From assembly GCA_041397345.1 (NCBI GenBank), contig JAWKWU010000008.1, positions 8,704-72,703 on the forward strand: 64,000 bases of DNA. Reading direction: 5' to 3'. Within the stretch, counting starts at the first letter, position 1. Each line of letters opens with the position of its first letter. This DNA comes from Paracoccaceae bacterium (GTDB taxonomy: Bacteria; Pseudomonadota; Alphaproteobacteria; Rhodobacterales; Rhodobacteraceae). A program made the translations under genes and the position numbers. Shown one piece after another: positions 33,533 to 53,774 of the stretch. Below the pieces are notes generated by a model. It was not told where the DNA came from and searched no databases. It saw only the letters and a program-made list of their open reading frames with translations.

Positions 33533-33633
33533 GGGCGCGCCCCCTTTCGGCGGGGGCCGTGCGCTGCGCCGCCGGCCCCCATCCCTTGCCCGGCCCTTCC
33601 GGCCGGGTCGTTCCTGCCTTGCCCGGATACCCC

Positions 33634-34620: not shown

Positions 34621-34653
34621 TGCCCCAGTGGTCCGCCCTTTCCCGGCGTGGCA

Positions 34654-34795
34654 AGAGGGGGCCTTGCCCCCTCGCCCTGCGGGCTCACCCCCAGAGTATT
34701 TCTGCCAAGATGAAGGCACAAAGGCTTTCAGGGCTTCATCTTGGTCCAAATACTCCGGGGGTGAGGGCGAAGCCCGAGGGGGCAGCGCCCCCTTC
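34654..34795. repeat. Inverted pair of about 62-bp REP-like elements forming a long palindrome
   Basis: GGGGGCCTTGCCCCCTC..CACCCCCAGAGTATTTCTGCCAAGATGAAG and its imperfect reverse complement CTTCATCTTGGTCCAAATACTCCGGGGGTG..GAGGGGGCAGCGCCCCC. Confidence 0.8.
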
Positions 34796-34819
34796 GCCGG
34801 CAGGCCTGGGGCGCGCGCC

Positions 34820-36557: not shown

Positions 36558-36568
36558 GGGAGACAGAC

Positions 36569-37999
36569 ATGACCATCCAGACCCAGCTTCTGATCGGGTC
36601 CGCCTTCGAGGCAGGGCAAGAGGCGCCCGAGCCGATCCTGAACCCTCGCACTGGCGAGCTGATCCTCGACGTGCCCGAGGCCTCGACCGCCCAGGTCGAC
36701 CGTGCCGTTGCCGCCGCCCGCAAGGCCTTTGAAACCTGGTCGCGCACCACCCCGGCCGAGCGGTCTGCCGCGCTCTTGCGCATCGCCGATCGGGTCGAGG
36801 CCGAAGCCGACAGCTTTGCCGCGCTCGAGGCGCTGAACTGCGGCAAGCCGATCAACGCCGCGCGTGGCGACGAGATCCCGGCCATCGTCGATTGCTACCG
36901 CTACTTTGCCGGCGCGGTGCGCTGCATGACCGGCACGGTGGCCGGCGAATACCTGACGGGTCATACCAGCATGATCCGCCGCGATCCCATCGGCATCGTC
37001 GCCTCGATCGCGCCCTGGAACTATCCGCTGATGATGATGGCCTGGAAACTTGGCCCGGCCGTGGCCGGCGGCAATTGCGTGGTGTTCAAGCCCAGCGAAC
37101 AGACCCCGCTGACCGCGCTGAAGATGGCCCGCATCCTGGCCGAGGAACTGCCCGAAGGCGTGGTATCGGTGATCACCGGGCGGGGCCAGACCGTCGGCAG
37201 CTACCTGATCAACCATCCCGGCGTCGACATGATTTCCCTGACGGGCGACGTGGCAACCGGCAAGAAGATGCTGGATGCCGCCGCCAAGACGGTAAAGCGC
37301 ACGCATCTGGAACTGGGCGGCAAGGCGCCGGTCGTGGTGTTCGACGACGCCGACGTGGCTGCGGTTGTCGAGGGCCTTCGGGCGTTTTCCTTCTACAATG
37401 CCGGGCAGGATTGCACCGCCGCCTGCCGCGTTTATGCCGGGCGCAAGGTCTATGACAACCTGGTGGCCGACCTGACCGCCGCCGCCGCCTCGATCACCCT
37501 GGGCGCCGAAGACGACACCACGAACGAGATCGGCCCGCTGATTTCCCAGCGTCAGCGCGACCGCGTCGCCAGCTTCGTCAACCGTGCGCGTGAGCTGAAC
37601 CATGTCGAAATCACCACCGGCGGCGCGGCAATGGACCAGGGGTTCTACTACCGCCCCACCGTGGTCGCCGGCGCGAAACAGGATGACGAGATCGTGCGGC
37701 GCGAGGTTTTCGGCCCCGTGGTTTCCGTCACGCCGTTCTCGGACATCGACGACGCCGTGGCCTGGGCCAATGACAGCGACTATGGCCTGGCCTCATCGGT
37801 CTGGACCCGTGATGTCGGCCGCGCCATGGCCACGGCCGCGCGGCTTCGCTATGGCTGCACCTGGATCAACACGCATTTCATGCTGACCAACGAAATGCCC
37901 CACGGCGGCCTGAAGCAGAGCGGCTATGGCAAGGACATGTCGGCCTATGCGCTCGAAGATTACACCGTGGTCCGCCACGTCATGGTGAAACACGGCTGA
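36569..37999 (+). CDS. patD: Gamma-aminobutyraldehyde dehydrogenase
   Basis: [31 protein letters not shown] catalytic Cys, EVFGPV, C-terminal VRHVMVKH; follows ydcSTUV-like genes. Confidence 0.88.
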
Positions 38000-38072: not shown

Positions 38073-39575
38073 TCAGTTCATCGGCGCGCCGCCCTCGGCC
38101 TTGCGCCGGGCCACGTAATCCGCCAGCTCTTCGGCCCTGTCCGCTGGCAGCACCGGCTCCTGATACTCGGCCAAGAGCCTTGGCCACAGCGCCGCCGCCC
38201 GTTCGGCGGTGCCGATGCCGCCGGCCTCCTTCCAGGTCTCGTGCGGCGACCAGTCCGACAGCAGCGGCCGGTGGAACGCCTCACGATAGCGGTCCAGCGT
38301 ATGCGCCGCGCCAAAGAAATGCCCGCCCGGCCCGACCTCGGCAATCGCCGCCAGCGCCAGTTCGGCGGCATCGGTGCTGACCGGCTCCATCACCGCCTGC
38401 ATCATCTGCAACATCTCGGCATCCAGCAGCAGTTTCTCGAAACTGGCGGTCAGGCCGCCATGCATCCAGCCCGCCGCATGCTCCATCAGATGCACGCCGC
38501 CCATGATCGCGCCCCAGATCGCCATCTGGCTTTCATAGCTTGCCTGCGCGTCCACCGCGTTGGCCGACGTGACATTGGACGACCGGAACGGCACGCCGAT
38601 ATGGCGCGCCAGCTGGCCGCTGGCCATCGCCGCCTTTGCATATTCCGGCGTGCCAAAGGCGGGCGCGCCGCTGGCCATGTCGACGTTCGAGGTAAAGCCG
38701 CCATACATCACCGGCACGCCCGGCCGCACGATCTGGGTCAGGACGATGCCGGCCAGCGCCTCGGCATGTTGCAGCACCAGCGCGCCCGCCAGCGACACCG
38801 GCGCCATCGCCCCGGCCAGCGTGAACGGGGTGATCACGTTGACCTGCCCGTGTTCGGCCAGCGCGATCAGGCCCTCGGCCATCGGGATATCCAGTTGCAG
38901 CGGCGAATTGGTGTTGATGATGCCCAGCAGGCAGGGCGCGGGCAGGCTGTCCAGCGCCGCGCCCATCCCGATCGCCGCCATGGCGATGCCGTCCAGCGTC
39001 CGCGCCCGGCCCAGCGTCTGCGTCTGCCAGTTCTTGTCCAGCAGCCGGATCTGCGCTGCGTAGATATCCAGATGCCGCGTCGCCGCCGGCAGGTCCATCG
39101 GCTCGAACGGGCCGCCGCCTTCCTGCTGGATCACGTTCAAAGCCTGCACCAGCCGCAGGTAGTCTTCCATTTCGGCCAGGGTTCCGTCGCGCCGGCCGCG
39201 CGCCAGATCCATCACATAGGCCGGCCCGCCGACCGAGGCAAAGACCATGTTGGCGCCACCCAGGGCCAGATTCCGCGCCGGGTTCCGGGCCAGCAGCCGA
39301 AAGGACCGTGGCACCGTTGCCAGCCGTTCGGCCACCAGCCCCGGATCCAGGCGCACCGTCAGGTCCTCGACACCCGCCCCCGCCGCGCGGAACCGGTCAC
39401 GGGCGCCGCCGTCCAGCACCCGCAGGCCGGTTTCGGCCAGCACCCGGCAGGCGGCGTGGTGGATCGTTTCCACCTGATCCCGGCTGATCACCTCGACCGG
39501 GGTCAGCCTGCGCGGCACCTGTCCCCAGGGCCGTTGCGGCACCCCGGCGGCGCGGCGCTCTGCCCGGCGGCTCAT
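38073..39575 (-). CDS. Trimethylamine methyltransferase (MttB) superfamily protein, no pyrrolysine
   Basis: INTNSPLQLD, TPFTLAGAMAPVSLAG, FTSNVDM.SGAPAFGTPE, HAAGW..GGL..SFEK, VGPGGHFFG; no in-frame TAG. Confidence 0.92.
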   Translation of the reverse strand: MSRRAERRAAGVPQRPWGQVPRRLTPVEVISRDQVETIHHAACRVLAETGLRVLDGGARDRFRAAGAGVEDLTVRLDPGLVAERLATVPRSFRLLARNPARNLALGGANMVFASVGGPAYVMDLARGRRDGTLAEMEDYLRLVQALNVIQQEGGGPFEPMDLPAATRHLDIYAAQIRLLDKNWQTQTLGRARTLDGIAMAAIGMGAALDSLPAPCLLGIINTNSPLQLDIPMAEGLIALAEHGQVNVITPFTLAGAMAPVSLAGALVLQHAEALAGIVLTQIVRPGVPVMYGGFTSNVDMASGAPAFGTPEYAKAAMASGQLARHIGVPFRSSNVTSANAVDAQASYESQMAIWGAIMGGVHLMEHAAGWMHGGLTASFEKLLLDAEMLQMMQAVMEPVSTDAAELALAAIAEVGPGGHFFGAAHTLDRYREAFHRPLLSDWSPHETWKEAGGIGTAERAAALWPRLLAEYQEPVLPADRAEELADYVARRKAEGGAPMN

Positions 39576-41605
39576 CCCGGCACCGCGAAATCGCGCCGCA
39601 CCAGCGGATCAGCCGCCAGGTCGCGGGCCACCTTGTGCGCGTGATAGATCGCATGGGCCAGCGCGCCCGGCGCGTTCGCGTCACCCGCCAGGTGAACCGA
39701 CGGCGCCCCCAGAGCCTGCAACTCCTCGGCCAGGCCCGATTGCGCGACCCTGGTGCCCACGATCACCACCGAGGCGGCGGGGATCGCGCTTTCCACCCCC
39801 GACAGCATATGCGCCAGCCGGACCTGCCCCTGGTCAAAGTCGACCACCCGCTCGCCCGTGCGCACGACGACCCCCAGCCGGGCCAGCGACTGATGCACCT
39901 GCGGCTGTTCGTTGGTCATGAAGCCCCAGGCCGCCGCCGCCCCGGCCGTCGTCACATAGGTCACCGACAGCCCCGGTTCGGCCAGCCGCTCCGCCAGCGC
40001 CGAACCCAGATAGTAATTGTCGAAATCATGCACCACCACCGGGCCGCGCGGCATCTGCCCCGCCACAAGGTCATCGGGCGTGAACACCCCCGGCCGGTCC
40101 AGCCGGCCTTCGGGAACCTCGTTCGGTCCGCACAGGGCGCGGTCCCATTTCGCGCCGGTCGCCACCACGATGTGATCGGCGCCGAAATCCAGCGCCTCGG
40201 CCGCGGTCATCGGGCTTTCGGGGTAAAGCTGCACGTTCGCCATCGCCCGCAACTGGCCCAGCCGATAGTCCACCACCCGGAACCACTGCCGCAGCCCCGG
40301 CAGGTTGCTTTCCCACAACAGCCGGCCGCCGAAATCGCGCCCCGCTTCGGCCACCGTGACCTGAAAGCCGCCCCGCCCCAGGGTCAGCGCCGCCTCCAGC
40401 CCGGCCGGCCCGCCGCCGATCACCAGCACCCGGCCTTGCGCGTCCGCCGCCACCTTTTCGGGATGCCACCCGCGCCGCCATTCCTCGCCGGCCGTCGGGT
40501 TCTGCGTGCAGCGCACCCATACCCCGTCATGCCAGCTGGAAATGCAGATGTTGCAGCCGATGCACTCGCGGATCTCGACCTCTCGCCCCTGGTCGATCTT
40601 TGCCGGCAGGAACGGATCGGCAATCGACGGCCGCGCCCCGCCGATCAGGTCCAGCACGCCGCGCCTGACCATCGACAGCATGGTATCGGGCGAGGTGAAC
40701 CGCCCCACCCCCACCACCGGCCGGGTCGTCACCTGCTTTACAAAGGCCACCGTCGCCTCGTGGCTGCCCTCGGCCGCATAGCGGCTGGGCGCGCAGTCGA
40801 ACGCGGAATAGTCCATCTTGACGTCGAATAGGTCCGGCGCGTCCTTCAGGTGCCCGATGACCTCATGCGCCTCGCTTTCCGCCACTTCGGACCTCCGCGC
40901 CCGCAATTCCTGCAATGATATCCGCAAGGCCACCGCACAGCGCCCGCCCGTGGCATTGCGGACCGCGTCGATCAACTCTTCGGTCAGCCGCACCCGGTTG
41001 CGCACCGATCCGCCATAGGCATCGGTGCGGCGGTTATAATCCGACAGCAGGAACTGATAGGGCAGGTATCCCATGCCCGAATAGACATAGAGGATGTCGA
41101 ACCCCGCCTGTTCCGCCCGCCGCGCCGCCTCGGCGTGCCAGCGGATCACGTCGCGGATGTCGCCTGCGTCCATCACCCTGGGCCGCGCTGCCGACATGAA
41201 GCCTGTATGCGTCGCCATCCAGGGCACGCCCGACGGTGACATCGGCGCGAACCGCGTGGTGCGGTTCACCGCCGCCGCGCCGCCGTGCCACAGCTCCACC
41301 GCCGCCAGCGCGCCATGGGCATGCACGGCATCCGTCATCAACGCATGGGCGGCGATATCGGCATCGTCCCACAGCGTCGCGTTCGGAAACGGGCTGTCAT
41401 CCGACGACGGATGCACCGAACAGGCGCCGGTCGAGACCACGCCCCAGCCGCCCTCGGCCTTCATCCCGCGAAAGGCGGCGCGCACCCGCGGGCTGGCGTT
41501 GGTCATCCCGCTGGCATGCGGCACCTGAAAGAACCGGTTCCGCGCCAGCTTGGGGCCGATCTGCACCGGCTGGAACAGGATGTCGTACCGCGGGTCCCTG
41601 GCCAT
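39572..41605 (-). CDS. TMADH/histamine-dehydrogenase-like Fe-S flavoprotein (OYE family) with divergent active site
   Basis: MARDPRYDILF, RNRFFQVPH, KAEGGWG, ARPSIADP, 4Fe-4S CIGCNIC..CTQN, IGGGPAGLEAA. Confidence 0.9.
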   Translation of the reverse strand: MARDPRYDILFQPVQIGPKLARNRFFQVPHASGMTNASPRVRAAFRGMKAEGGWGVVSTGACSVHPSSDDSPFPNATLWDDADIAAHALMTDAVHAHGALAAVELWHGGAAAVNRTTRFAPMSPSGVPWMATHTGFMSAARPRVMDAGDIRDVIRWHAEAARRAEQAGFDILYVYSGMGYLPYQFLLSDYNRRTDAYGGSVRNRVRLTEELIDAVRNATGGRCAVALRISLQELRARRSEVAESEAHEVIGHLKDAPDLFDVKMDYSAFDCAPSRYAAEGSHEATVAFVKQVTTRPVVGVGRFTSPDTMLSMVRRGVLDLIGGARPSIADPFLPAKIDQGREVEIRECIGCNICISSWHDGVWVRCTQNPTAGEEWRRGWHPEKVAADAQGRVLVIGGGPAGLEAALTLGRGGFQVTVAEAGRDFGGRLLWESNLPGLRQWFRVVDYRLGQLRAMANVQLYPESPMTAAEALDFGADHIVVATGAKWDRALCGPNEVPEGRLDRPGVFTPDDLVAGQMPRGPVVVHDFDNYYLGSALAERLAEPGLSVTYVTTAGAAAAWGFMTNEQPQVHQSLARLGVVVRTGERVVDFDQGQVRLAHMLSGVESAIPAASVVIVGTRVAQSGLAEELQALGAPSVHLAGDANAPGALAHAIYHAHKVARDLAADPLVRRDFAVPG

Positions 41606-41613
41606 GCTGCCCC

Positions 41614-41714
41614 CTTGTTGAACGGTTGTATAGTAAGCGCGTCCGTCGGTTTCCGTCAAGCTGGCATTGGCGTTTGACAGCACGGCGCCGCTTGTTGCAT
41701 GATCGTTCAACAAG
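41614..41714. promoter_or_regulatory. Divergent promoters with two inverted operator copies (probable TetR sites)
   Basis: CTTGTTGAACGGTTGTATAGTAAG (41614-41637) and CTTGTTGCATGATCGTTCAACAAG (41691-41714); TTGACA-N18-CATGAT on + and TTGACG-N18-TACTAT on -. Confidence 0.75.
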
Positions 41715-41727
41715 ACAGCGGAACCCT

Positions 41728-43740
41728 ATGCCCGATATCCGTTCAGATTTTCCGTTCCAGGTAGAGGTGACCGAAAACCTCTTCATCCCGCTGCCCGACG
41801 GCACCAGGCTGGCGGCCAAGCTATGGCGCCCGGCGGGGCAGGGGGCGCATCCCGCCATTCTGGAATACCTGCCCTACCGCAAGCATGACGGAACCCGCGG
41901 GCGCGACCAGGGAATGCACATGTATCTGGCGGGGCATGGCTATGCCTGCCTTCGCGTCGACATTCGCGGCACCGGCGAAAGCGACGGCACCCTGCATGAC
42001 GAATATTCCGAACCCGAGCTGCAGGACGGCTGCGACCTGATCGCCTGGATCGCCGCCCAGGACTGGTGCGACGGGCAGGTGGCGATGATCGGCATTTCTT
42101 GGGGCGGCTTCAACGGGTTGCAGATCGCCGCCCGCCAGCCGCCGGCGCTGAAGACCGTCATTGCCCTGGGCTTCACCGACGACCGTTATGCCACCGATGT
42201 CCACTACATCGGCGGCTGCCTGTCCAAGGACAACCTCGACTGGTCGGCCACCATGGTCGCCGGCATGGACCTGCCGCCCGACCCGGCCCTGCATGGCGCC
42301 GGCTGGCGTGACCTCTGGCTGCAACGGATTCAGGCCAACGAACCCTGGGGCCTGACCTGGCTGGCCCATCAGCGCCGCGATGCCTATTGGCAGCATGGGT
42401 CGGTCTGCCAGGATTTCGCCGCCATCCGCGTGCCGGTCTATGCCGTCTCGGGCTGGGCCGACAATTATTCCGAGGCCGTGCCCCGCCTGCTGGCCGGCCT
42501 GACCGTTCCCTGCCGCGGGCTGATCGGCCCATGGGCGCATTCCTTTCCACAGGATGTCACCGTTGAACCGGCCATCGGCTGGCTGCAAGAGGTTCTGCGC
42601 TGGTGCGATCACTGGCTCAAGCGGCGCGACACCGGCATCATGGCGGAACCCGTGCTGCGGGTCTGGATGCAGGACGCCGTTCCGCCGCAGACCTGTTATC
42701 GCCACCGCCCCGGCCGCTGGGTGGGCGAAGCGGACTGGCCCAGCCCGCGCATCCGCGACCGCCTGTTCCATCCCGTCGGGCACGGCCTTGCCGCCAGCCC
42801 CCGGCCCGGCGCCGCCACGATCTGCTCGCCGCTCTGGGTCGGTATCGCCTCGGGCGAGGTCGGCCGCTACGGCGCCGATGCCGACTGGCCGCCCGACCAG
42901 CGCGAGGATGATGGCGGCTCGCTGGTCTGGACCACCGATCCCCTGACCGAAGACCTGGAAATCCTCGGCGCCCCGCGGCTTGAGCTGCGGGTGGCGTCGG
43001 ACCGGCCGCTGGCGCTGGTCGCCGTCCGGCTGAGTGACGTTGCCCCGGATGGCGCCTCTACCCGCGTCACCCTGGGCCTGATGAACCTGACCCATCATGC
43101 CGGCCACGACGCGCCGCGGGCCCTGATCCCCGGCCAGCCGGTTGCCGTCACCGTTGAACTTGACGACATCGCGCACCGGTTTCCCGCCGGGCATCGCATC
43201 GCGCTCGCCCTGTCCAGCAGCTATTGGCCCGTCGCCTGGCCCAGCCCGCAGGCCGCCACGCTGACCATCGACACCGGGGCCACCGTCCTGGCCTTGCCGG
43301 TCCGGCCGCCGCGCCCCGAAGACGCCGGCCTTCGCCGCTTTGACCCGGCCGAGGCCGCGCCGCAATCGCCGGTGATCGACCACCCCTGCGCGCCCGCCGC
43401 CCCGCGCCGCATCACCCGCGACCTGCTGTCAGGCCGCATCACGGTGGATTTCCCGCGCTGGACCTATGACCACGAATATCCCGACATCGGCATTCGCCAG
43501 GCCAGCGACGGCCATGCCCGCTATGAGATCACCGAGGGCGATCCCTTGTCCGCCCGCATGTCCACCCACTACCACGTCACCCAGACCCGCGCCGACGGCG
43601 TCTTTACCCATGACAGCACCAGCAGCCTGACCTGCGATGCCGGCCATTTCCACCTGACCGCCGAAATCGTCATTTCCGAAAACGGCCGCGAGATTCACCG
43701 CCGCCACTGGCAAAGGGCCATTCCCCGTGACCACCTCTGA
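41728..43740 (+). CDS. CocE/NonD family hydrolase (peptidase S15)
   Basis: DGTRLAAKLW, EYLPYRK, VDIRGTGESDG, nucleophile GISWGG, IGPWAH, C-terminal GHRIAL; no signal peptide. Confidence 0.92.
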   Translation: MPDIRSDFPFQVEVTENLFIPLPDGTRLAAKLWRPAGQGAHPAILEYLPYRKHDGTRGRDQGMHMYLAGHGYACLRVDIRGTGESDGTLHDEYSEPELQDGCDLIAWIAAQDWCDGQVAMIGISWGGFNGLQIAARQPPALKTVIALGFTDDRYATDVHYIGGCLSKDNLDWSATMVAGMDLPPDPALHGAGWRDLWLQRIQANEPWGLTWLAHQRRDAYWQHGSVCQDFAAIRVPVYAVSGWADNYSEAVPRLLAGLTVPCRGLIGPWAHSFPQDVTVEPAIGWLQEVLRWCDHWLKRRDTGIMAEPVLRVWMQDAVPPQTCYRHRPGRWVGEADWPSPRIRDRLFHPVGHGLAASPRPGAATICSPLWVGIASGEVGRYGADADWPPDQREDDGGSLVWTTDPLTEDLEILGAPRLELRVASDRPLALVAVRLSDVAPDGASTRVTLGLMNLTHHAGHDAPRALIPGQPVAVTVELDDIAHRFPAGHRIALALSSSYWPVAWPSPQAATLTIDTGATVLALPVRPPRPEDAGLRRFDPAEAAPQSPVIDHPCAPAAPRRITRDLLSGRITVDFPRWTYDHEYPDIGIRQASDGHARYEITEGDPLSARMSTHYHVTQTRADGVFTHDSTSSLTCDAGHFHLTAEIVISENGREIHRRHWQRAIPRDHL

Positions 43741-44341
43741 CGCCCCCAGGTTCCGCCGCTACGCCCCCGAGGAACGGGCCGCCATGCTGGTGCAGGCCGG
43801 GCTGGCCTGCCTGGCCGAAGGTGGCATCACCGCCTTTACCGTCGACAACATCTGCCGCCGGGCCGAGGCGTCGCGCGGCCTGATCGCCCATCATTTCGGC
43901 AGCAAGGAAGGGTTGCTGGCCGCCGTCTACGAGGCCGCCTACCAACCGATGCTGGAGATGATTTCCGGCGATCCGCCCTTGCCGCTCGGCACCCTGCTCG
44001 ACCGCATGTTCGACGGCGAAAGCCATGACACCGCCACGCTGCGGATCTGGCTGGCGCTGTGGGGAGAGGTCACGGTCAACCCGGCCCTGCGCGCGGCGCA
44101 CCGCCGCAACTATGGCCGCTACCGCGCCACCGTCGAAGCCGCGATCGAGGATCATTGCTTTGCCCGCGGCCTGAAACTGGATGCAGGCGCATTGGCCACC
44201 ACGGCCATCGCGCTGATCGACGGGCTCTGGCTGGAACAATGCATCGACCCCGAGGGCTTTGATGCCGACCGTGCCCGCGCGTCTGCCCATGCGCTGCTGG
44301 AACCGGTGCTGGGCCCGCTGGACCAGGGCAAAGCGCCTTGA
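43727..44341 (+). CDS. TetR family regulator (BetI-like C-terminal domain)
   Basis: HTH ICRRAEASRGLIAHHFGSKEGLL; ALIDGLWLE. Confidence 0.9.
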   Translation: MTTSDAPRFRRYAPEERAAMLVQAGLACLAEGGITAFTVDNICRRAEASRGLIAHHFGSKEGLLAAVYEAAYQPMLEMISGDPPLPLGTLLDRMFDGESHDTATLRIWLALWGEVTVNPALRAAHRRNYGRYRATVEAAIEDHCFARGLKLDAGALATTAIALIDGLWLEQCIDPEGFDADRARASAHALLEPVLGPLDQGKAP

Positions 44342-44406
44342 CACGCGCTTGCCCCCAGATGCAAACTTTTGATCAAATCCCGACAGGGACAGGGGCAGAG
44401 GTGTGA

Positions 44407-45540
44407 ATGCAGACAGAGATCGTCGCCCTCTCCGGCCCCAGCCCCGGAACCGGCCGCTGCCTGACCCGGCATCATTGGGGTCCGCCCGATGCGCGGCCAA
44501 AGGTCTATCTGCAAGGCGGGCTGCACGCCGATGAAATGCCGGGGCCGCTGGCGCTTTTCCATCTGATGCAGGCGCTGGACCGGGCCGAGGCCGAGGGGCG
44601 GATCGCCGGCCACATCGTCGTGGTGCCGCTGGCCAACCCCATCGGCCTGTCGGAATGGCTGCTGCACAAGCCGCTGGGCCGCCGCGACCTGGAAGGGGCG
44701 CATAACTTCAACCGCGGCTATCCCGATCTGGCCCGGCTGGCAGGCGACCGGATAGAAGGCCAGCTTGGCGCCGATCCGGCCGGCAATACCCGGCTGATCC
44801 GCGCCGCCTTTGCCCAGGCGCTGGCCGACCAGGCCCCCCGCACCGAGGTTGACGACCTGCGCCTGCGGTTGATCCAGGGCTCTTGCGACGCAGACCATGT
44901 GCTTGACCTGCATTGCGACCACCGCGCCGTGCTGCATCTTTATGCCTCGACCGCCCAGCCGCAGACCACCGATCTTCTGGCCCGTTGCACCGGCGCGCGG
45001 CTGGCGCTGATCGAGGACACCTCCGGCGGCCACGCCTTTGACGAGGCGCATACCGCCCCCTGGCGGGCGTTGCAGGCCCGGTTCGGCGATCGTTTCCCGA
45101 TCCCGTCGGCCTGCTTCTCGACCACGCTGGAATATCGCGGCCAGCTCGACACCTCGGATGCGCTGGCCGAGCAGGATGCCCAGGGGCTGCTGGCCTTTCT
45201 TGCGGCGACCGGCGCGCTGCGCGATGGCCCGGCACCCGCCCATCCCCCGGCCGAACAGCAGCCGCTGGCCGGCGCGATCGAGGCCACCGCCACCTTTGGC
45301 GGCATCGTAAGCTGGATCACCGCGCCCGGCGACCGTGTCACCGAAGGCCAGGTCCTGGGCCATGTGACCGATGCCGCCACCCGCCACCGGGTGGCGATAC
45401 CCGCCCCCGCCACCGGCCTGCTGTTCCGTCAGGAACTCTGGCCGACCTGCCTGAAAGGGCAGGGCCTTTGCCATGTCGCCGGTGCCGAACCGCGGCGGCA
45501 GGGCGATCTCTGTCTGACTGAAAACAACAACAGGGAGTGA
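44407..45540 (+). CDS. Succinylglutamate desuccinylase/aspartoacylase family (M14) amidohydrolase; true stop probably 45521
   Basis: LHADE, PLANPIG, NFNR, LDLHCD, TLEYRG; one added C gives the terminus GDLLSD*. Confidence 0.88.
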   Translation: MQTEIVALSGPSPGTGRCLTRHHWGPPDARPKVYLQGGLHADEMPGPLALFHLMQALDRAEAEGRIAGHIVVVPLANPIGLSEWLLHKPLGRRDLEGAHNFNRGYPDLARLAGDRIEGQLGADPAGNTRLIRAAFAQALADQAPRTEVDDLRLRLIQGSCDADHVLDLHCDHRAVLHLYASTAQPQTTDLLARCTGARLALIEDTSGGHAFDEAHTAPWRALQARFGDRFPIPSACFSTTLEYRGQLDTSDALAEQDAQGLLAFLAATGALRDGPAPAHPPAEQQPLAGAIEATATFGGIVSWITAPGDRVTEGQVLGHVTDAATRHRVAIPAPATGLLFRQELWPTCLKGQGLCHVAGAEPRRQGDLCLTENNNRE

Positions 45541-45545
45541 CGCCA

Positions 45546-47137
45546 ATGAAGATGCACGCATTCGCCAGATTGCTGACCGGGGCCGCGCTGGTCCTTGGCC
45601 TCGGCACCGCCGCCCTGGCCGACGACACGCTCGATCGCGGCATCGGCTCGAATGGTCCTCGCTGGACCCGCAGGTGAATTTCGACGCCGCCGCCGGCTGG
45701 ATCATGATGGACGCCTACGAAGGCCTGGTCAGCTTTGGCCCCGGCGGCGGCGTCATTCCCGGCGCGGCCGAAGGCTGGGACGTCAGCGAGGATGGCAAGA
45801 TCTATACCTTCCACCTGCGCGACGGGCTGAAATGGTCGAACGGCGATCCGCTGGTGGCGCAGGATTTCGTCAATTCCGTCCTGCGCACGCTGGACCCGAC
45901 GACCGTCAGCGAAAAGGGCTATTACTTCTACTCGGTGGTGCAGATCAAGGGCGCCTCGGACCTGGCCAATGGTGAAACCACCGACCCCGCCGCCCTGGGC
46001 GTCACCGCCCCCGATGACCGCACCGTGGTGATCGAGATGCTGACCCCCGCGCCGCATATCCTTGATATCCTTGGGGCCTTCCAGATCCCGCCGCTGCATT
46101 CGCCCAGCTTCGCCGCCAATGGCGCCGCGGGCTTTGTCGATCCGGCCAAGGTGGTGTCGAACGGCGCCTATGTCATCAAGGAGATCGTGCCGCAAAGCCA
46201 CATCCTGCTGGAGCGGAACCCGAATTACTGGGATGCGGCCAACGTGAAGATTCCGATGGTGAAATACCACGTCACCGAAGATGTCTCGACCGAGTTCAAG
46301 CGGTTCCAGGCCGGCGAAATCGACATCACCTATGACATCCCGGTGAACCAGATCGACGCCGTGCGCGAAACCATGCCCGACCAGGCATTCATCACGCCTT
46401 CGACCGAGAACACCTATTACACCTTCAACCTGACGCATGAACCGTTGCAGGACATCAACGTGCGCATGGCCCTGTCGCTGGCCATCGACCGTGACACGCT
46501 GGAAAACAAGATCGTCAAGGGCGGGGCTATTCCGTCGTTCTCCTATGCCGGTGGCTTTGATCCCACCTATGCCGGTCCGCAGATGCCGGGCGCCGAGCTG
46601 ACCCAGGCCGAACGCGAGGCCAAGGCGCAGGAGCTGATGGCCGCCGCGGGCTATGGCGCCGACAATCCGCTGACCCTGACCATCGTCACCACCGTGGCGG
46701 AAGACCGCACCCGGCTGGCCCAGGGCGTCGCGCTGATGTGGAAAAAGGTGCTGGGGGTCGAGGCCAAGGTCGAACCGATGGAGCGCAAGGCCTGGCTCGA
46801 TGCCTTCTACGCCGGCGGCTGGGACGTGTTCGCCGACAACCTGGTGGGCGACTTTGCCGGGGCCGAGACCTTCCTGGCCTACATGCGCCCCTCGGCCGAG
46901 GCCGGTTACAACTGGGTAAAGCCGGAATATGACGCGCAGATGGACGTGGCCGCGACCATGCCCGACAAGGCCAGCCGCAATGCGGAACTGGCCAAGGCCG
47001 AAAAGATCCTGCTGGACGATGTCATCTTTGCGCCGATCGCGATCGAACCGTCGCGGATGCTGGTCAGCAGCCATGTCCACGGCTGGGTGCCCTCGCCCGC
47101 CGGCTATTACAACACCCAGTTCCTGACACTGGACTGA
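45546..47137 (+). CDS. Opp/Dpp-type peptide ABC transporter substrate-binding protein; frameshift near 45650
   Basis: Signal MKMHAFARLLTGAALVLGLGTAALA; SLDP, YEGLV, YTFHLRDGLKWSNGDP, SNGAY, RNPNYW. Confidence 0.9.
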
Positions 47138-47143
47138 CGGCAC

Positions 47144-47167
47144 GGGGGCGGCCCTTCGGCCGCCCCC
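47144..47167 (+). terminator. Intercistronic GC hairpin after the SBP gene (stabiliser/attenuator)
   Basis: GGGGGCGGCC-CTTC-GGCCGCCCCC. Confidence 0.5.
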
Positions 47168-47185
47168 GACCGCGCAGGGGGCATC

Positions 47186-48109
47186 ATGCTGCGATTCATC
47201 GGCAAGAGGTTGTGGAACGGCGCGCTGACCCTGGCGGCGCTGGTGACGCTGACCTTCTTTGTCATGCGCCTGGCGCCGGGCGGGCCGTTTTCCCGCACCC
47301 GCAAGATCAGCCCCGACGTGCAGGCCAATATCGAGGCGGCCTTCCACCTGGATGAACCGGTGTGGCAACAGTTCGGCCGCTTCGTCTGGGGGCTCTTGCA
47401 CCTCGACCTTGGCCCCTCGACCCGGTTCCGCGACTATTCGGTGGGTGACATCATCGCCTCGGGCCTGCCCTATTCGCTGACCATCGGGTTCTGGGCCATC
47501 GTCGTCGCCGGGCTGATCGGCGTGGCGCTGGGCATCGCCGGGGCGCTGCGCCGCAACGGCCTGACCGACTATCTGGCCGGCACCTTCGGCGTCATCGGCA
47601 TCGCTATTCCGATCTTCGTCATCGGCCCGGTGTTCCAGCTGATCTTCGCGCTGAAACTCGGCTGGCTGCCGGTGGGCGGCTGGGGCGCGGGGTGGCGGTC
47701 GCTGATCCTGCCGGTGGTCGTGCTGGCCCTGCCCAACATCGCCTATATCTCGCGGCTGACCCGCACCTCGATGATCGAGACCCTGCGCGAGAATTATATC
47801 CGCACCGCCCGCGCCAAGGGGATCGGCTGGCGCCGCACCCTGATGCGCCACAGCCTGACCGGGGCGCTCTTGCCGGTCGTCGCCTATATTGGCCCGGCCA
47901 CCGCCGCCATCATCACCGGCTCGATCCTGATCGAGACCATCTTTGCCGTTCCCGGCATCGGCCGGCACTTCGTCGACGCCGCGCTGAACCGCGACTATCC
48001 CCTGGTGATGGGCATCACGCTGCTCTACGGCGGCCTGCTGATCCTGTTCAACATCGGCACGGATGTGGTCCGCGCCTGGATGGACCCGAGGTTGCGCCAT
48101 GACCGCTGA
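47186..48109 (+). CDS. Peptide ABC permease (OppB-like)
   Basis: APGGPF, LDLGPS, YIRTARAKG, NRDYP. Confidence 0.93.
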   Translation: MLRFIGKRLWNGALTLAALVTLTFFVMRLAPGGPFSRTRKISPDVQANIEAAFHLDEPVWQQFGRFVWGLLHLDLGPSTRFRDYSVGDIIASGLPYSLTIGFWAIVVAGLIGVALGIAGALRRNGLTDYLAGTFGVIGIAIPIFVIGPVFQLIFALKLGWLPVGGWGAGWRSLILPVVVLALPNIAYISRLTRTSMIETLRENYIRTARAKGIGWRRTLMRHSLTGALLPVVAYIGPATAAIITGSILIETIFAVPGIGRHFVDAALNRDYPLVMGITLLYGGLLILFNIGTDVVRAWMDPRLRHDR

Positions 48110-48965
48110 TGCCGCCGGGTCCACCTCGACCCTGCACCTGCAATTCCGCCGCTTCCGGCAGAACCGGCTGGCCATGGTCTCGGTGGCGATCCTGGTGCTG
48201 ATCGTGCTGGCCTGTTTCCTTGGCCCCCATGCCTTTCCCTTTACCGGCGAGGATGCCGATTTCGAGAACATCGCCGCCCCGGTGAACCTGTTCTCCATCC
48301 ATCCCTTCGGCACCGACGATTTCGGCCGCGACCTGCTGGTGCGGGTGCTGGAAGGCGGGCAGGTCTCGCTCTCCATCGGCTTTCTCGGCGCGCTGGTTGC
48401 CGGCGGCATCGGCGTTCTCTACGGCGCCATCGCCGGCTATGCGGGCGGGCGCCTCGACGGGCTGATGATGCGGCTGGTCGAGGTGCTGTACGGCTTTCCC
48501 TATGTGATCCTGGTGATCCTGCTGTCGCTCCTGTTCGGCGGCGGCACCATCGCGCTCTTTGCCGCCATCGTCTTTACCCTCTGGCTGACGCCCGCCGTCA
48601 TCGTGCGCGCCCAGGCGCAAAGCCTGGCGCAAAAGGAATTCGTCCAGGCGGCGCGGGCGGGCGGCATGACCGGTGGCCAGATCGTGCTGGAACACATCGT
48701 TCCCAACTGCATCTCGGTCGTCATCGTCTACGGCAGCCTGCTGGTGCCCGAGGTGATCCTGTCGGAATCCTTCCTCTCCTTCCTTGGCATCGGCATCAAG
48801 GAACCGCAGGCCAGCTGGGGCAACCTGATCCAGACCGGCACTTCCGCCATGGACACCGACCTGCGCCTGCTGCTCCTGCCCGGCACGCTGCTGGCCATGG
48901 TGCTGTTCTGCCTCAACTTCATCGCCGACGGGCTGCGAGACGCCTTTGACCCCAATGACCGCTGA
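48099..48965 (+). CDS. Peptide ABC permease (OppC-like)
   Basis: [37 protein letters not shown]. Confidence 0.93.
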
Positions 48966-49940
48966 ACCGCTTCTTTCCCTGCAGGACCTGACCGTGCGCT
49001 TTCGCCTTCCCGGCGGCACCTCGGTGGCGGTCGACGGCGTCAGCCTCGACCTCGCGGCCGGCGAGACGCTGGGCATCGTCGGCGAAAGCGGCTCGGGCAA
49101 GAGCCAGATCCTCTATGCGCTGATGGGCCTGCTGGCCACGAACGGCACGGTGGGCGGGCGCGCGCTGTTTCGCGGCCAGGATCTGCTGGCGCTGTCGCCT
49201 GCCCGGCTGGACCGCATCCGCGGGCAGGATATCGCCATGATCTTCCGGACCCGATGACCAGCCTGAACCCCTATATCCGCGTCGGCGACCAGCTGGTCGA
49301 GGGGCTGATGGTCCACCAGAACCTGTCGCGCAGCGCCGCCCGGGCCGAGGCGGTGCGCATGCTCGACCGTGTCCGCATCCCCGATGCCGCCAGCCGCGCC
49401 CGCCGCTATCCGCATGAATTTTCCGGCGGGATGCGGCAAAGGGTGATGATCGCCATGGCGCTGCTGGCGCGGCCCCGGCTTCTTCTGGCCGACGAACCCA
49501 CCACCGCGCTGGACGTGACCATCCAGGCGCAGGTCCTTGACCTCATGGCGGAACTGGGCCGCGAAACCGGCACCGCCATCATCCTTGTCACCCATGACCT
49601 TGGCGTGGTCGCCCGGCTGTGCGACCGCGTCGCCGTCCTCTACGGCGGCCGCATCATGGAAGAGGCCGCCGCCGAGACCCTGTTCGATGCCCCGGCCCAT
49701 CCCTATACCCGCGGGCTGCTGGCGGCGATGCCCCGGCTGGAAACCGCGCTGACGGACCGGCTGGGCACCATTCCCGGCAATCCGCGCTCGGGTGGCGGCG
49801 ACCTGCCCGGCTGTCCCTTTGCCCCGCGCTGCGAGGTCCGCCTGCCGCATTGCACCACCGCGCGGCCGCCGCTGCGCGAGCTGTCCACCTTTGGCCCCGG
49901 CCGCCGTGCCGCCTGCCACCTGCTGGGGGCCGCGCCATGA
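48955..49940 (+). CDS. Peptide ABC ATP-binding protein (OppD-like); frameshift at about 49246
   Basis: GESGSGKS; MIF[Q]DPMTSLNP restored by one A; FSGGMRQR; C-terminal Cys motif [12 protein letters not shown]. Confidence 0.9.
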
Positions 49941-50905
49941 CGCTTTTGGAAACCCGCGGCCTTGGCGTCGGCTATACCCTTCCCCCGGCCTCGCTGCTGG
50001 GCCGCGCCCGCCTCTTGCCCATCGTCCACGATGTCTCGCTGACGCTGGCCCCCGGTCGCACCCTGGGTATCGTCGGCGAGAGCGGTTGCGGCAAATCCAC
50101 CCTTGGCCGGGCGCTCCTGCGCCTGATCCCGCCTTCGGCCGGCCAGGTGCTGTGGCAGGGCCAGGACATGGCGCAGATCCCCGACCTGCGCCGCCGCCGG
50201 GCCGAGATGCAGATCATCTTCCAGGATCCCATCGCCGCGCTGGACCCGCGCATGACCCTGGGCCGCATCGTCAGCCGCCCGCTGGCGACGTTTGAGCCCG
50301 GCCTTTCGCGCCGCGATGCCCGCGCCCGCGCCGTGCAGGCGCTGGAACAGGTCGGGCTGTCGGCGGATTTCGCCGATCGCTATCCGCATGAACTGTCGGG
50401 CGGGCAGGCACAGCGCGTCGGCATCGCCCGCGCCATCGTCGGGCGCCCCCGGATGATCGTCTGCGACGAACCCGTATCCGCGCTGGATGTCTCGATCCAG
50501 GCCCAGGTCATCAACCTCTTGATGGACCTGCAGGCGCAGATGGGGCTGGCGCTGGTGTTCATCTCGCACAACCTGGCCGTGGTGCGCCATATCAGCCACG
50601 ATGTCATGGTGATGTGCCTGGGCCGGGTGATGGAAACCGCCCCGCGCAGCGCCTTTTACGCCCGCCCGCTGCATCCCTATTCGCAGGCCCTGATGCAGGC
50701 CGTCCCCGAACCCGACCCCCGGCGCGAGAAGGGCCGGATCGGCTCTGCCCTTCCGGGCGAACTGCCCTCGGTGCTGTCGCCGCCGCAGGGCTGCGTCTTT
50801 GCGACCCGCTGCCCGCGCGCGACCGACCTCTGCCACCGGACGCGCCCGGACCTGCGCACCATCGAAACCGACCGCCAGGTTGCCTGTCACCATGTCGAGG
50901 CCTGA
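49937..50905 (+). CDS. Peptide ABC ATP-binding protein (OppF-like)
   Basis: GESGCGKST, IFQDP, LSGGQAQR, CDEPVSALD, GCVFATRC..ACH. Confidence 0.93.
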   Translation: MTLLETRGLGVGYTLPPASLLGRARLLPIVHDVSLTLAPGRTLGIVGESGCGKSTLGRALLRLIPPSAGQVLWQGQDMAQIPDLRRRRAEMQIIFQDPIAALDPRMTLGRIVSRPLATFEPGLSRRDARARAVQALEQVGLSADFADRYPHELSGGQAQRVGIARAIVGRPRMIVCDEPVSALDVSIQAQVINLLMDLQAQMGLALVFISHNLAVVRHISHDVMVMCLGRVMETAPRSAFYARPLHPYSQALMQAVPEPDPRREKGRIGSALPGELPSVLSPPQGCVFATRCPRATDLCHRTRPDLRTIETDRQVACHHVEA

Positions 50906-52717
50906 ATGACCGATCTTTCCACCCTCTGGGCCGCTGTGCCGCAATTGTCGAACATCCATGCCTCGGGCGACGGGCGGCTGGCCTTCTGGTGCTGGTCGGG
51001 GCTGACCGAGACCGACAATGTCTGGTGCGCCCCGACCGACGGTTCCGCGCCGCCGCAGCAGCTTACCGATGGCAGCGACCATTTCACCATCCGCGATGTC
51101 AGCCATGACGGCAGCCGCCTGATCCTGGGCCAGTCGCCCAGTGCCAGCGAACATGACCATCTTATCCTGCTGGACCGTGCCACCGGCGAACAGCGCCAGC
51201 TTACGCCCAGGCAGGACACGCATTACGTCTATGGCGGCGCCTTGTCGGCCGATGCGGGGGCGGTGTTCTTCCTGGCCGATTTCGACTATGACGCGGGTCA
51301 GGTCACCGCCGGCGCCTGGCTCTGGCGGCAGGATCTGGCCACCGGCGCCCGCACCTGCCTGGCCACCGCCGACAGCCCGCCGCATTTCTACGTCGGCCCG
51401 CAGCTTTCGCCCGATGGCACCCGCCTGCTCTGGCACCGCAGCGACCGCGCGCCGGGCGGCTATCAGCTCTGGGTGATCGGCATCGACGGCGGCGACCCGC
51501 AAAAGGTGCTGGACCTCGGGGCCAGGAACAATGTCCTTGCCAACTGGGTCTCCGACGATCGCATCGCCTTTGCCTGCGACCAGGATGGACGCGACCGGCT
51601 GGGCGTCCTCAGCCTGTCCACCGGCCAGGTCGACTGGATTGCGTCCGAACCCGATCTCTGCCCGCACGACACCCTGGCCGGCACAGCCGGGGCCTTTGCG
51701 GTGATCCACCATCAGGCCAGCCGCACCTGCGCCGCCCTGGTCGACGGCCACCGGGTCACGCCCTTGCCGAATCCCACCGGCCGCCGCAGCCTATTGCCGC
51801 ATGCAGCACTTGCCGATGGCGGCTGGCTGGCCGAGGCCTATGACGCCTCTGCCCCCCATGATCTCGTCGCCCTGGCCGCCGATGGCAGCCACCGGGTGAT
51901 CGCACGCGCTGCCCCTGAACCGGCCCGCCCGCACGTCGCGCCGCAGGATTTCCGCTGGACCGCCCCCGATGGCCGCCCGATGCAGGGCTGGCTCTATCGC
52001 CCCGCCGGTCCGCCCAAGGGCCTGATCGCCTATGTCCACGGCGGCCCGACCTGGCATTCCGAAGACTGGGTCAACCCCAAAATCCAGTTCTGGGCCGCGC
52101 TCGGCTATGCCGTCCTCGACCCGAATTACCGTGGCTCCACCGGTTTCGGCCACGACCACCGCGAGGCGGTCAAGCAAGACGGCTGGGGCGGGCGCGAACA
52201 GGATGACATCCGCGCCGGGGTCGAGGCCGCGCTGGCCAGCGGCCTGCCCGGACCCGTCGCCATCGCCGGCAATTCCTATGGCGGCTTTTCCAGCTGGTTC
52301 GGCATCACCCGCCACCCCGACCTCTACACCGCCGCCATTCCGATGTGCGGCATGTACCGGCTGGACATCGACTATCACGCCACCGAAATGCCGCATGGCC
52401 GGGCCTATTCCGAAGAGATGATGGGCGGCACGCCCGAGGAATTCCCCGAGAAATACGCCAATGCCTCGCCCGGCCGCTTCATCGACCGCATCAGGGGGCA
52501 CCTGATGATCGTGCATGGCCTGGCGGATTCCAACGTCGGCCCGGAAAACACCCATACCGCCGTGCGGGAACTGACCGGGGCCGGCATCCCGCATCAGGTG
52601 ATGCTGTTTGAAAACGAGGGCCACGGCGTGTTTCGCCGCAGCAATGTCGCGGCCTATCTGCGCGCCAGCGCCGCCTTTCTGCAACAGGCCTTCCAGACCG
52701 GCATCCGGCCGGCCTGA
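50906..52717 (+). CDS. S9 family serine peptidase (acylaminoacyl/dipeptidyl peptidase-like)
   Basis: Beta-propeller-like N-terminus; VHGGP, PNYRGSTGFG, GNSYGG, HG..DSNV, EGHG triad; no signal peptide. Confidence 0.92.
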   Translation: MTDLSTLWAAVPQLSNIHASGDGRLAFWCWSGLTETDNVWCAPTDGSAPPQQLTDGSDHFTIRDVSHDGSRLILGQSPSASEHDHLILLDRATGEQRQLTPRQDTHYVYGGALSADAGAVFFLADFDYDAGQVTAGAWLWRQDLATGARTCLATADSPPHFYVGPQLSPDGTRLLWHRSDRAPGGYQLWVIGIDGGDPQKVLDLGARNNVLANWVSDDRIAFACDQDGRDRLGVLSLSTGQVDWIASEPDLCPHDTLAGTAGAFAVIHHQASRTCAALVDGHRVTPLPNPTGRRSLLPHAALADGGWLAEAYDASAPHDLVALAADGSHRVIARAAPEPARPHVAPQDFRWTAPDGRPMQGWLYRPAGPPKGLIAYVHGGPTWHSEDWVNPKIQFWAALGYAVLDPNYRGSTGFGHDHREAVKQDGWGGREQDDIRAGVEAALASGLPGPVAIAGNSYGGFSSWFGITRHPDLYTAAIPMCGMYRLDIDYHATEMPHGRAYSEEMMGGTPEEFPEKYANASPGRFIDRIRGHLMIVHGLADSNVGPENTHTAVRELTGAGIPHQVMLFENEGHGVFRRSNVAAYLRASAAFLQQAFQTGIRPA

Positions 52718-52958: not shown

Positions 52959-52989
52959 AAAAAACCCCGCGGCCCTGCGGCCACGGGGT
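52959..52989 (-). terminator. Rho-independent terminator of the DUF1013 gene
   Basis: CCCCGTGGCC-GCAG-GGCCGCGGGG-T6 on the minus strand. Confidence 0.75.
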
Positions 52990-53024
52990 CCGGTCACGGG
53001 GTCCGCCCCCGGCGCAATCCGCGC

Positions 53025-53774
53025 CTAGCGGTGGTCGTCCTCATCCTCGTCATCATCGCTGGCCGGCAGGTTGAAGAAGCTTTCCGCATCCGAGAAATCG
53101 GCCGGCGAAGAGCGGTCCTTTTCCTCGTCGCCAAAGACTTCCAGGCCGGTAAAGGCGGCGACCTTCGGTTCATCCGCGTCCATGCCCAGCGATTGCTCGG
53201 TCGACACCAGCTTGCGCCGCTCGTCGTCGCTCATCACCGTGCCTTCGGCGGCCTTCTTGCGGGCGGCGGCCTGCACCGCCGCGTCCAGCTCCGACTGCCG
53301 GCACAGGCCCAGCGCCACCGGATCGGTGGGAACCATGCTCTGGATGTTCCAGTGCGTCCGCTCGCGGATCGACTGGATCGTGGGCTTGGTGGTGCCGACC
53401 AGCTTGCCGATGGCGCCGTCCGACAGCTCGGGGTGGAACTTGACCAGCCACAGGATCGCGTTCGGCCGGTCCTGCCGCTTGGACAGCGGCGTATAACGCG
53501 GGCCGCGGCGCTTGTCCTCGCCCACGGCGGCGGCGTTGAACTTCAGCTTCAGCTTGTAGAGCGGGTCCGCCTGCCCCCGCTCGATCTCGATCGGGTCCAA
53601 CTGGTTGTTGGCGATCGGGTCGAATCCCTTGACGCCGCCGCCCACGTCGCCATCGGCGATGCCCTGCACTTCCAGCTCGTGCATGCCGCAGAATTCGGCG
53701 ATCTGGCGGAAGGTCAGCGTGGTGTTGTCGACCAGCCAGACGGCGGTGGCGCGGGCCATGATCGGCTTGTTCAT
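53025..53774 (-). CDS. trcR: DUF1013 cell-cycle transcription factor TrcR
   Basis: PIMARATAVWLVDNTTLTF.QIA.FC.MH.LEV..IADG; GPRYTPLSKRQDRP; DPVALGLC. Confidence 0.88.
   Translation of the reverse strand: MNKPIMARATAVWLVDNTTLTFRQIAEFCGMHELEVQGIADGDVGGGVKGFDPIANNQLDPIEIERGQADPLYKLKLKFNAAAVGEDKRRGPRYTPLSKRQDRPNAILWLVKFHPELSDGAIGKLVGTTKPTIQSIRERTHWNIQSMVPTDPVALGLCRQSELDAAVQAAARKKAAEGTVMSDDERRKLVSTEQSLGMDADEPKVAAFTGLEVFGDEEKDRSSPADFSDAESFFNLPASDDDEDEDDHR

Follow-up and report, generated by a model that had tools for sequence, protein, structure and literature searches.

Non-pyrrolysine MttB proteins number in the thousands in aerobic bacteria and, to our knowledge, no substrate is known for most of them; glycine betaine demethylation, recently elucidated in Ruegeria, is the only case worked out in aerobes. 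The MttB-type enzymes of Ruegeria use an unlinked corrinoid protein that is shared with a split methionine synthase (PMC12478193), and the glycine betaine binding motif of MtgB consists of Y97, F356, R312, and H348, with R312 and H348 holding the carboxylate (PMC13080624). In the Paracoccus pathway, a first demethylase is followed by a flavin-dependent N-methylproline demethylase (PMC3950512). CphZ, described by Sharon et al., is a β-Asp-Arg/Lys dipeptidase of cyanophycin breakdown for which catalytic and substrate-binding residues have been defined (PMC9974463). Here, we describe an island at positions 38073 to 52717 of a 64,000-nucleotide stretch from a Paracoccaceae bacterium (GenBank assembly GCA_041397345.1, contig JAWKWU010000008.1, positions 8,704 to 72,703 of the forward strand; hereafter, the window). 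From one divergent promoter region, it reads leftwards through genes for a trimethylamine dehydrogenase (TMADH)-family flavoprotein and an MttB methyltransferase, and rightwards through genes for a CocE/NonD hydrolase, a TetR repressor, a CphZ-like hydrolase, an Opp-type importer, and an S9 peptidase.

All of these parts belong to known families, while their combination is undescribed in the literature that we searched, where we found neither a paper covering both CocE/NonD and MttB nor a description of the gene combination. Judged by gene content and neighborhood, the island is a composite: a conserved core of CocE, MttB, and the flavoprotein, in most cases accompanied by TetR and frequently by an importer, is joined to a separable CphZ-like/Opp/S9 peptide module. 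The reading that we favor, with our confidence evenly balanced, is that a single TetR regulon serves imported peptide-like conjugates, whose cytoplasmic hydrolysis would free an acidic methylated amine to be demethylated by MttB and then by the flavoprotein. The features of the island are as follows.

38073-39575, minus strand: non-pyrrolysine MttB-superfamily methyltransferase, 500 amino acids (PF06253, 615 bits)
39572-41605, minus strand: TMADH/histamine-dehydrogenase-family iron-sulfur flavoprotein, 677 amino acids (Oxidored_FMN and Pyr_redox_2)
41614-41637, no strand: left box, CTTGTTGAACGGTTGTATAGTAAG, 24 bp, between the leftward -10 box and the flavoprotein start codon
41630-41703, both strands: divergent σ70-like promoter pair, leftward TTGACG-18-TACTAT and rightward TTGACA-18-CATGAT
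41691-41714, no strand: right box, 24 bp, holding the 22-bp palindrome TTGTTGCATGATCGTTCAACAA at 41692-41713, the predicted TetR operator, which overlaps the rightward -10 box
41728-43740, plus strand: CocE/NonD (S15-fold) serine hydrolase, 670 amino acids (TIGR00976, 246 bits)
43727-44341, plus strand: TetR-family repressor with a BetI-type C-terminal domain (TetR_N, 47 bits; TetR_C_6, 79 bits)
44407-45540, plus strand: CphZ-like M14 zinc hydrolase (AstE/AspA-type; isoaspartyl-Arg/Lys dipeptidase family; PDB 8EIN/8EIP, 4.8e-63)
45546-47137, plus strand: OppA/MppA-like periplasmic binding protein gene (SBP_bac_5, 280 bits), frame change near 45650
47186-48109 and about 48063-48965, plus strand: two Opp-type permease genes (BPD_transp_1, OppC_N)
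48946-49940, plus strand: OppD-type ATPase gene, ABC_tran model split across two frames, frame change near 49246
49619-50905, plus strand: OppF-type ATPase gene (ABC_tran and oligo_HPY), true start probably near 49937
50906-52717, plus strand: S9 (prolyl-oligopeptidase-family) peptidase (Peptidase_S9, 126 bits)

We compared the island with 13 loci from its genus, with annotated plasmids, and with a wider set of 80 loci centered on CocE orthologues of at least 63% identity, drawn from Tabrizicola, Rhodobacter, Fuscovulum, Pseudogemmobacter, Defluviimonas, Albidovulum, Frigidibacter, Aestuariivirga, Pacificispira, and others. Sixty-four of the 80 were informative for the left arm, having at least 4 kb of sequence upstream of CocE, and in 55 of these 64, an MttB and/or flavoprotein orthologue adjoins CocE. 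Across all 80 loci, MttB is divergent from CocE in 34 and co-directional with it in 24, and TetR is present in 56. At least 60 loci, from cultured and uncultured Paracoccaceae as well as Aestuariivirga and Pacificispira, place MttB and/or the flavoprotein beside the hydrolase. The core recurs across Paracoccaceae, and some Hyphomicrobiales and Rhodospirillales have it too. A second type of family-5 importer, approximately 32% identical to that of the window and with a binding protein that resembles no known peptide binder, accompanies CocE in 35 of the 80 loci, 33 of which have MttB and/or the flavoprotein. On a Fuscovulum ytuae plasmid, the genes form a single co-directional operon in the order flavoprotein, MttB, CocE, ATP-binding cassette (ABC) importer, binding protein, and TetR. 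Among cultured strains, Pseudogemmobacter lacusdianii CPCC 101601 has the full layout, and Rhodobacter kunshanensis HX-7-19, Defluviimonas aestuarii JCM 18630, and Aestuariivirga litoralis KCTC 52945 have the core by itself. Clustering of the 1,048 open reading frames (ORFs) from the 80 loci revealed no further conserved partner gene. Lineage-specific additions include an Amidohydro_3 gene with a glutamate-synthase-like trio, and aminotransferase, BKACE, and deacetylase genes. In Aestuariivirga-type loci (L064, 357-5991; L068, 380-2197), the Amidohydro_3 gene follows MttB; in L064, it is followed by the trio (GATase, a protein of unknown type, and GXGXG with Glu_synthase), which resembles N-methylglutamate synthase and hints at methylamine handling, while L068 ends before that point.

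The CphZ-like gene is present in 22 of the 80 loci, of which nine have MttB and/or the flavoprotein. No locus holds both importer types, and the second importer never occurs with the CphZ module. The CphZ-like/Opp/S9 module stands alone between unrelated flanks in two genomes of the genus (G006 and G019), and the same arrangement is indicated in a third (G021) by paired gene positions only. Seven loci with enough upstream sequence carry the module with CocE and have no MttB or flavoprotein gene nearby; five genomes with the CocE-CphZ-Opp-S9 arrangement have no flavoprotein orthologue, the best match being 46-53% identical. The CocE tree separates a clade of 18 (support 100), which includes the window and in which every member has the CphZ module, from a clade of 46, all with MttB and the flavoprotein and never with the CphZ module. 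All 10 of the genomes with the CphZ/S9 module among the 24 genomes of the genus also have an MttB orthologue, although these genomes are kin and not independent cases. We conclude from these neighborhoods that the CphZ-like/Opp/S9 genes are probably a self-sufficient peptide module that this lineage has placed behind the core promoter. A preliminary description of this DNA took the two arms as one system in which a compound is trimmed by three different hydrolases. The arms do occur together, in the 55 of 64 loci given above; a single obligatory three-hydrolase pathway does not survive the comparison, since the module is separable and occurs by itself in G006 and G019. Because the island is a fusion of two modules, conclusions drawn from three hydrolases acting together are unsafe.

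The regulatory sequences are consistent with common control of the two arms. The divergent pair at 41630-41703 comprises the only two σ70-like promoters between 37900 and 53100, and it is accompanied by two related 24-bp boxes, of which the left shares a half-site with the palindrome of the right and is conserved in 12 genus loci. In loci from several families, a motif common to both arms, GTTCAACAA, follows the -10 box and precedes the start codon, and co-directional loci of several families keep the leader TTGACA-N17-AACTATAC-N4-GTTCAACAAGG-ATG ahead of the flavoprotein gene. The palindrome TTGTTGCATGATCGTTCAACAA has one perfect match in the 3.45-Mb genome. It lies 30-45 nt upstream of CocE in the genus loci and is found with no more than two mismatches in about 28 of the 80 wider loci; in 1.44 Mb of related loci, nearly all matches lie at this same distance from CocE. 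It also precedes the unlinked CphZ-like module of G019 (L034) with one mismatch, as well as CocE in loci that lack TetR (L035/L043, perfect; L091, L115, and L061). With arms that adjoin in most informative loci, a conserved motif common to both, and paired boxes at the only promoters, the earlier proposals of a divergent promoter with paired operators and of co-regulated arms are supported, the operators themselves being predictions. The sole site in the genome with two mismatches (C2:358030) is neighbored by genes of AAA-ATPase, kinase, and ImpA-like (type VI secretion) type; it looks like a chance match, and we rejected it as a second member of the regulon. In the L035 locus (7470-7625; G014:C93), the stretch between CocE and the CphZ-like gene matches the tetR 3′ end and downstream spacer of full-layout loci, and this TetR-less arrangement probably arose by deletion of tetR.

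Within each arm, neighboring genes overlap or are spaced by no more than 65 nt, and no terminator-like site was found in any intergenic gap of either arm. The MttB start overlaps the flavoprotein stop (ATGA), an arrangement of translational coupling, and the tetR start overlaps the CocE stop. The flavoprotein start is the ATG at 41605 rather than a TTG further upstream. CocE scores 246 bits against TIGR00976 (cut-off, 66) and has its nucleophile motif (GxSxG) as GISWGG at residue 122; its match to cocaine esterase is only 3e-29, that of a distant relative. No hydrophobic N terminus was detected in the CocE, CphZ-like, or S9 hydrolase, where the longest hydrophobic run is 3-6 residues, and we predict that CocE, the apparent hub gene of the system, and the S9 peptidase are both cytoplasmic. 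The TetR protein matches the BetI-type domain family PF13977 at its C terminus (79 bits) and scores well below the BetI equivalog cut-offs (TIGR03384, 82 bits versus 201; NF001978, 78 versus 118), so we rejected its identification as BetI proper. In these respects, the preliminary description fared well: the ORF listing and the Pfam/NCBIfam scans recovered every gene where it had been placed (flavoprotein, MttB, CocE/NonD, TetR, M14, importer genes, and S9), the three hydrolases indeed lack signal peptides, and "BetI-like" is apt for a repressor that shares a domain with BetI without being BetI itself.

The MttB protein, also correctly described as non-pyrrolysine, matches PF06253 over essentially the full model (model positions 7-500 of 500); its open frame contains no in-frame TAG or other internal stop, hence the assignment. 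Its nearest structures are PDB 4YYC (4e-98) and MtgB (2QNE/9YCE, 8e-90). When aligned to 9YCE/2QNE, it keeps R312 and H348, and both Y97 and F356 are replaced by Gly. We rejected glycine betaine MtgB as its identity because both aromatic residues of the site are gone; the residues fit an acidic quaternary amine other than glycine betaine. No corrinoid protein gene is present within the island. In a related genome (G001:C1:196500-202000, L123), we found a locus encoding an S-methyl_trans homocysteine methyltransferase, a 241-residue MtgC-like protein (B12-binding_2 and B12-binding), DUF1638, and a radical-SAM protein; a syntenic locus is present in the genome of the window (G000:C2:489500-494500, L122), where several genes are cut by frame changes. 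Since Rhodobacterales relatives share an unlinked corrinoid protein and the genus possesses such a locus, a cobalamin route that operates without a local corrinoid gene is plausible by analogy.

The flavoprotein is closest among solved structures to 6L6J (1.7e-176), for which our literature search found nothing, followed by histamine dehydrogenase (3K30, 2e-169) and TMADH (1e-146). It carries the flavin mononucleotide (FMN) barrel, the 4Fe-4S motif CxxCxxC followed by a fourth Cys, and an ADP-binding domain with GxGxxG. QVPHA replaces QVPHC, so that Ala stands at the position of the cysteine (Cys30 in TMADH) that forms the covalent 6-S-cysteinyl bond to FMN, and from this we infer that the FMN is bound non-covalently. 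At the TMADH active-site motifs with Tyr60, Tyr169, and His172, the protein has STGACS for NTEYCS and YSGMGY for YGAHSY, and it has neither Tyr60 nor His172. This flavoprotein family is paired with MttB in a second setting, on a Leisingera caerulea plasmid (NZ_CP081074, 223-236 kb; L125). There, genes for TetR and a Pot-type ABC importer lie together with those for a TMADH-like flavoprotein (48% identity to that of the window), a Rieske oxygenase, MttB, an HpbD-like enzyme of the mandelate-racemase family, and a GMC oxidoreductase.

Taken together, the favored reading would run as follows. In the absence of inducer, TetR would occupy the two boxes and block both promoters. A small peptide-like conjugate, linked by an amide or ester bond, would be imported and cleaved in the cytoplasm by the serine hydrolases and the CphZ-like enzyme, the latter freeing a C-terminal Arg/Lys-type residue. 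One of the cleavage products would be an acidic quaternary or N-methylated amino acid, from which MttB would hand a first methyl group to the unlinked corrinoid protein shared in the genus, and thence to tetrahydrofolate; the flavoprotein would then remove the next N-methyl group oxidatively, in two steps comparable to those from stachydrine through N-methylproline to proline. The general peptide module would have been captured behind the core promoter in this lineage, and the compound taken up is probably small and peptide-like, a conjugate of a methylated amino acid. The freed amine had been proposed to be handled by both oxidative and cobalamin-dependent routes; both enzyme types are indeed present, and they are better read, tentatively, as two successive demethylations.

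Several points weigh against this reading. As the preliminary description had already held, the substrate cannot be named from sequence, and the comparison with related loci did not change this. Both the electron acceptor and the sequence in which the two demethylations take place are assumed, and the pairing of TetR with the operator is deduced from position only. Since at least five genomes carry CphZ/Opp/S9 and CocE and have no flavoprotein orthologue, the hydrolases do not depend on the demethylases. By the loci compared, the core mostly uses another importer, whose binding protein is unlike any known peptide binder, and the residues of the CphZ-like enzyme point to ordinary β-Asp-Arg/Lys, which carries no methyl group. 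Finally, two of the importer genes are interrupted in the sequence as read.

A narrower reading concerns the core by itself. CocE/NonD, the aerobic MttB, the TMADH-like dehydrogenase with non-covalent FMN, the family-5 importer, and TetR may constitute an undescribed pathway of freshwater and marine Alphaproteobacteria that imports an amide- or ester-linked conjugate of an acidic quaternary amine, frees the betaine in the cytoplasm, and strips its methyl groups first by a corrinoid-dependent and then by a flavin-dependent step. We advance this tentatively, as something short of an even prospect; if true, the MttB superfamily would gain a new class of substrate in aerobes.

The best of the alternatives, which we regard as rather unlikely, is that two unrelated functions lie side by side: the right-hand module would scavenge ordinary peptides, notably cyanophycin-derived β-Asp-Arg/Lys di- and oligopeptides from other organisms, MttB and the flavoprotein would demethylate a free betaine brought in by another transporter, and the promoter region would be common to both by an accident of gene order. 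The M14 enzyme speaks for such a division. It had been described as an M14 deacylase, of which the family (AstE/AspA-type) stands and the anonymous deacylase does not: the protein matches the structure of the characterized CphZ over its full length (residues 10-363). The zinc triad H50/E53/H179 and the catalytic E251 all align identically to 8EIN, whose chain numbering is offset by 9 from that in PMC9974463. The carboxylate clamp (R102, N112, and R113), the cation pocket (D222 and E223), D181, and S216 are conserved, and K366, which contacts the Asp moiety, is His, leaving six of the seven residues R102, N112, R113, D222, E223, D181, and K366 identical. None of five genomes encodes an S51 cyanophycinase, for which reason we rejected a local cyanophycin pathway; the absence matches the "scavenger" pattern of CphZ (PMC9974463). 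CphZ-like relatives in Paracoccus and Haematobacter adjoin arginine catabolism genes, and the plasmid-borne homologues that tblastn found have no more than about 41% identity. The binding protein is an ordinary OppA/MppA relative (MppA 3O9P, 5e-79), and the solitary modules and the genomes without a flavoprotein orthologue described above fit the same division. The S9 peptidase, which has a GNSYGG motif, is nearest in structure to the aminopeptidase 3AZO (6e-27) and is also near acylaminoacyl peptidases.

Other features of the loci tell against two unrelated functions. CocE travels with the CphZ module in one clade, and in the other clade no gene is tied more tightly to MttB and the flavoprotein. 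The same operator stands before the unlinked CphZ-like module of G019 and before the TetR-less CocE-CphZ loci. S9 genes have joined MttB independently in three loci (L071, L072, and L099), none of which has the CphZ module and all of which differ in layout from the island. That the core has its own family-5 importer in 35 loci argues that its substrate, too, is an imported conjugate.

A second alternative, which seems improbable to us, is that the left arm and CocE are a non-orthologous version of a known betaine pathway of the proline betaine or carnitine type, with MttB in place of the Rieske oxygenase, the flavoprotein as an N-methyl amino acid demethylase, and CocE merely freeing the betaine from an ester or amide. 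The characterized order of two demethylases in Paracoccus (PMC3950512) would agree with it, as would the Leisingera cluster, in which Rieske and HpbD-like enzymes are united with MttB and this flavoprotein family; the carboxylate-binding residues of MttB are kept, and TetR has a BetI-type ligand domain. We looked for a stachydrine or carnitine match of this kind and found no Pfam family of a Rieske demethylase, HpbD, carnitine dehydrogenase, or BKACE among the island genes, and none among the conserved partners of the 80 loci, in keeping with the earlier statement that the combination could be matched to no characterized pathway. Neither the island nor the 80 loci contain genes for HpbD, Rieske, PutA-type, or carnitine dehydrogenase enzymes or a betaine transporter, nor does any further conserved partner appear there, and neither a CocE/NonD hydrolase nor a family-5 importer is required in any known betaine pathway.

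The last alternative, that the cluster is decaying in this strain and that the importer binding protein and first ATPase genes are true pseudogenes, is very improbable and was set aside, the frame changes being assembly-wide. All five importer genes are present (a family-5 binding protein, two permeases, and two ATPases with oligo_HPY tails), and two of the five are interrupted, each by a single missing base relative to relatives in which both genes are uninterrupted; this clustering of two deletions within five genes is what would favor decay. As read, the importer is thus not the complete one that had been described. In the binding protein gene, the signal peptide starts at 45546 and the mature part lies in the frame of 45674; in the OppD-type ATPase gene, the reading ends in MIFRTR* where relatives read through. 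Such breaks are not peculiar to the cluster, however: 4 of 44 orthologous loci across the assembly, about one in ten, are split between frames relative to relatives (three of the four outside the cluster), and the essential methionine-synthase-like locus of this genome is cut several times, so the importer breaks are probably assembly errors. Codon bias is intact on either side of each break, and the assembly has a completeness of 80% with only 29 contigs. Elsewhere in this genome (G000:C2:334037-335548, outside the window), one of six MttB paralogues has a single in-frame TAG, which may be an artifact or a pseudogene given the error-prone assembly.

The island is flanked on the left (33274-37999) by a Pot-type polyamine ABC importer, comprising an ATPase and two permeases, and an aminobutyraldehyde-dehydrogenase-like aldehyde dehydrogenase (NF010000, 791 bits), which run convergent to MttB. 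These genes are kept only in the closest relatives, and G015 lacks the aldehyde dehydrogenase; for this reason, we did not count them in the system. On the right, a TrcR-type cell-cycle regulator gene (53025-53774; PF06242, 200 bits) flanks the S9 gene, and a strong hairpin (52962-52991) lies between the two.

Its ties to a hydrolase and an importer, to a further enzyme resembling a demethylase, and to a repressor whose predicted operator is clear make this MttB lineage a tractable route to a new methylated-nitrogen substrate. Such a compound would matter for how carbon and nitrogen are turned over in lakes, activated sludge, and coastal water. The island offers a concrete way in to the substrates of aerobic MttB proteins.

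How the island relates to described systems can be stated part by part. Like many CphZ genes, its CphZ-like gene lies in a genome without a cyanophycinase and adjoins a transporter; it differs from CphZ/AotO in having an Opp-type rather than an Aot-type transporter operon, a BetI-like TetR and demethylases for neighbors, and His for K366. CocE/NonD and family-5 importer operons are found on Paracoccus aminophilus pAMI5 and in Ketogulonicigenium, Aureimonas, and Roseivivax plasmids, where a CocE 46-48% identical to that of the window stands beside a binding protein, two permeases, and ATPases; these operons, likewise uncharacterized, have a LysR or other regulator and neither MttB nor the flavoprotein, and such distant relatives of CocE adjoin family-5 importers, without demethylases, in other Alphaproteobacteria as well. 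The flavoprotein has the three-domain layout, 4Fe-4S cysteines, and ADP-binding fold of TMADH and histamine dehydrogenase (E values of 1e-146 to 1e-176). Together with 6L6J, it has Ala where those two enzymes have the FMN-linking Cys, and it differs from TMADH in lacking Tyr60 and His172. As in the MttB superfamily members for glycine betaine (MtgB), proline betaine (MtpB), carnitine (MtcB), and γ-butyrobetaine (MtyB), the MttB of the island is a full-length PF06253 protein without pyrrolysine that keeps the carboxylate Arg and His; both glycine betaine aromatics of MtgB are Gly in it. The island has no local corrinoid gene, and the genus has, as does Ruegeria with its MtgBCD system, an unlinked locus for an MtgC-like protein, DUF1638, and homocysteine methyltransferase. 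Here, the MttB gene is translationally coupled to that of a flavoprotein of the TMADH family, and a CocE/NonD hydrolase and an importer are linked to it as well; no characterized member of the superfamily has such links. Relative to stachydrine and hydroxyproline betaine catabolism in Paracoccus denitrificans and Sinorhizobium, in which the HpbB/C or Stc2 Rieske demethylase is followed by HpbA/StcD, the island has no Rieske oxygenase, HpbD epimerase, or betaine transporter; it would begin with a corrinoid-dependent step, and it has a hydrolase and a peptide-type importer in addition. The two have a betaine-type regulator domain in common, and their likeness is one of pathway logic: two N-demethylations, the second by a flavoprotein.

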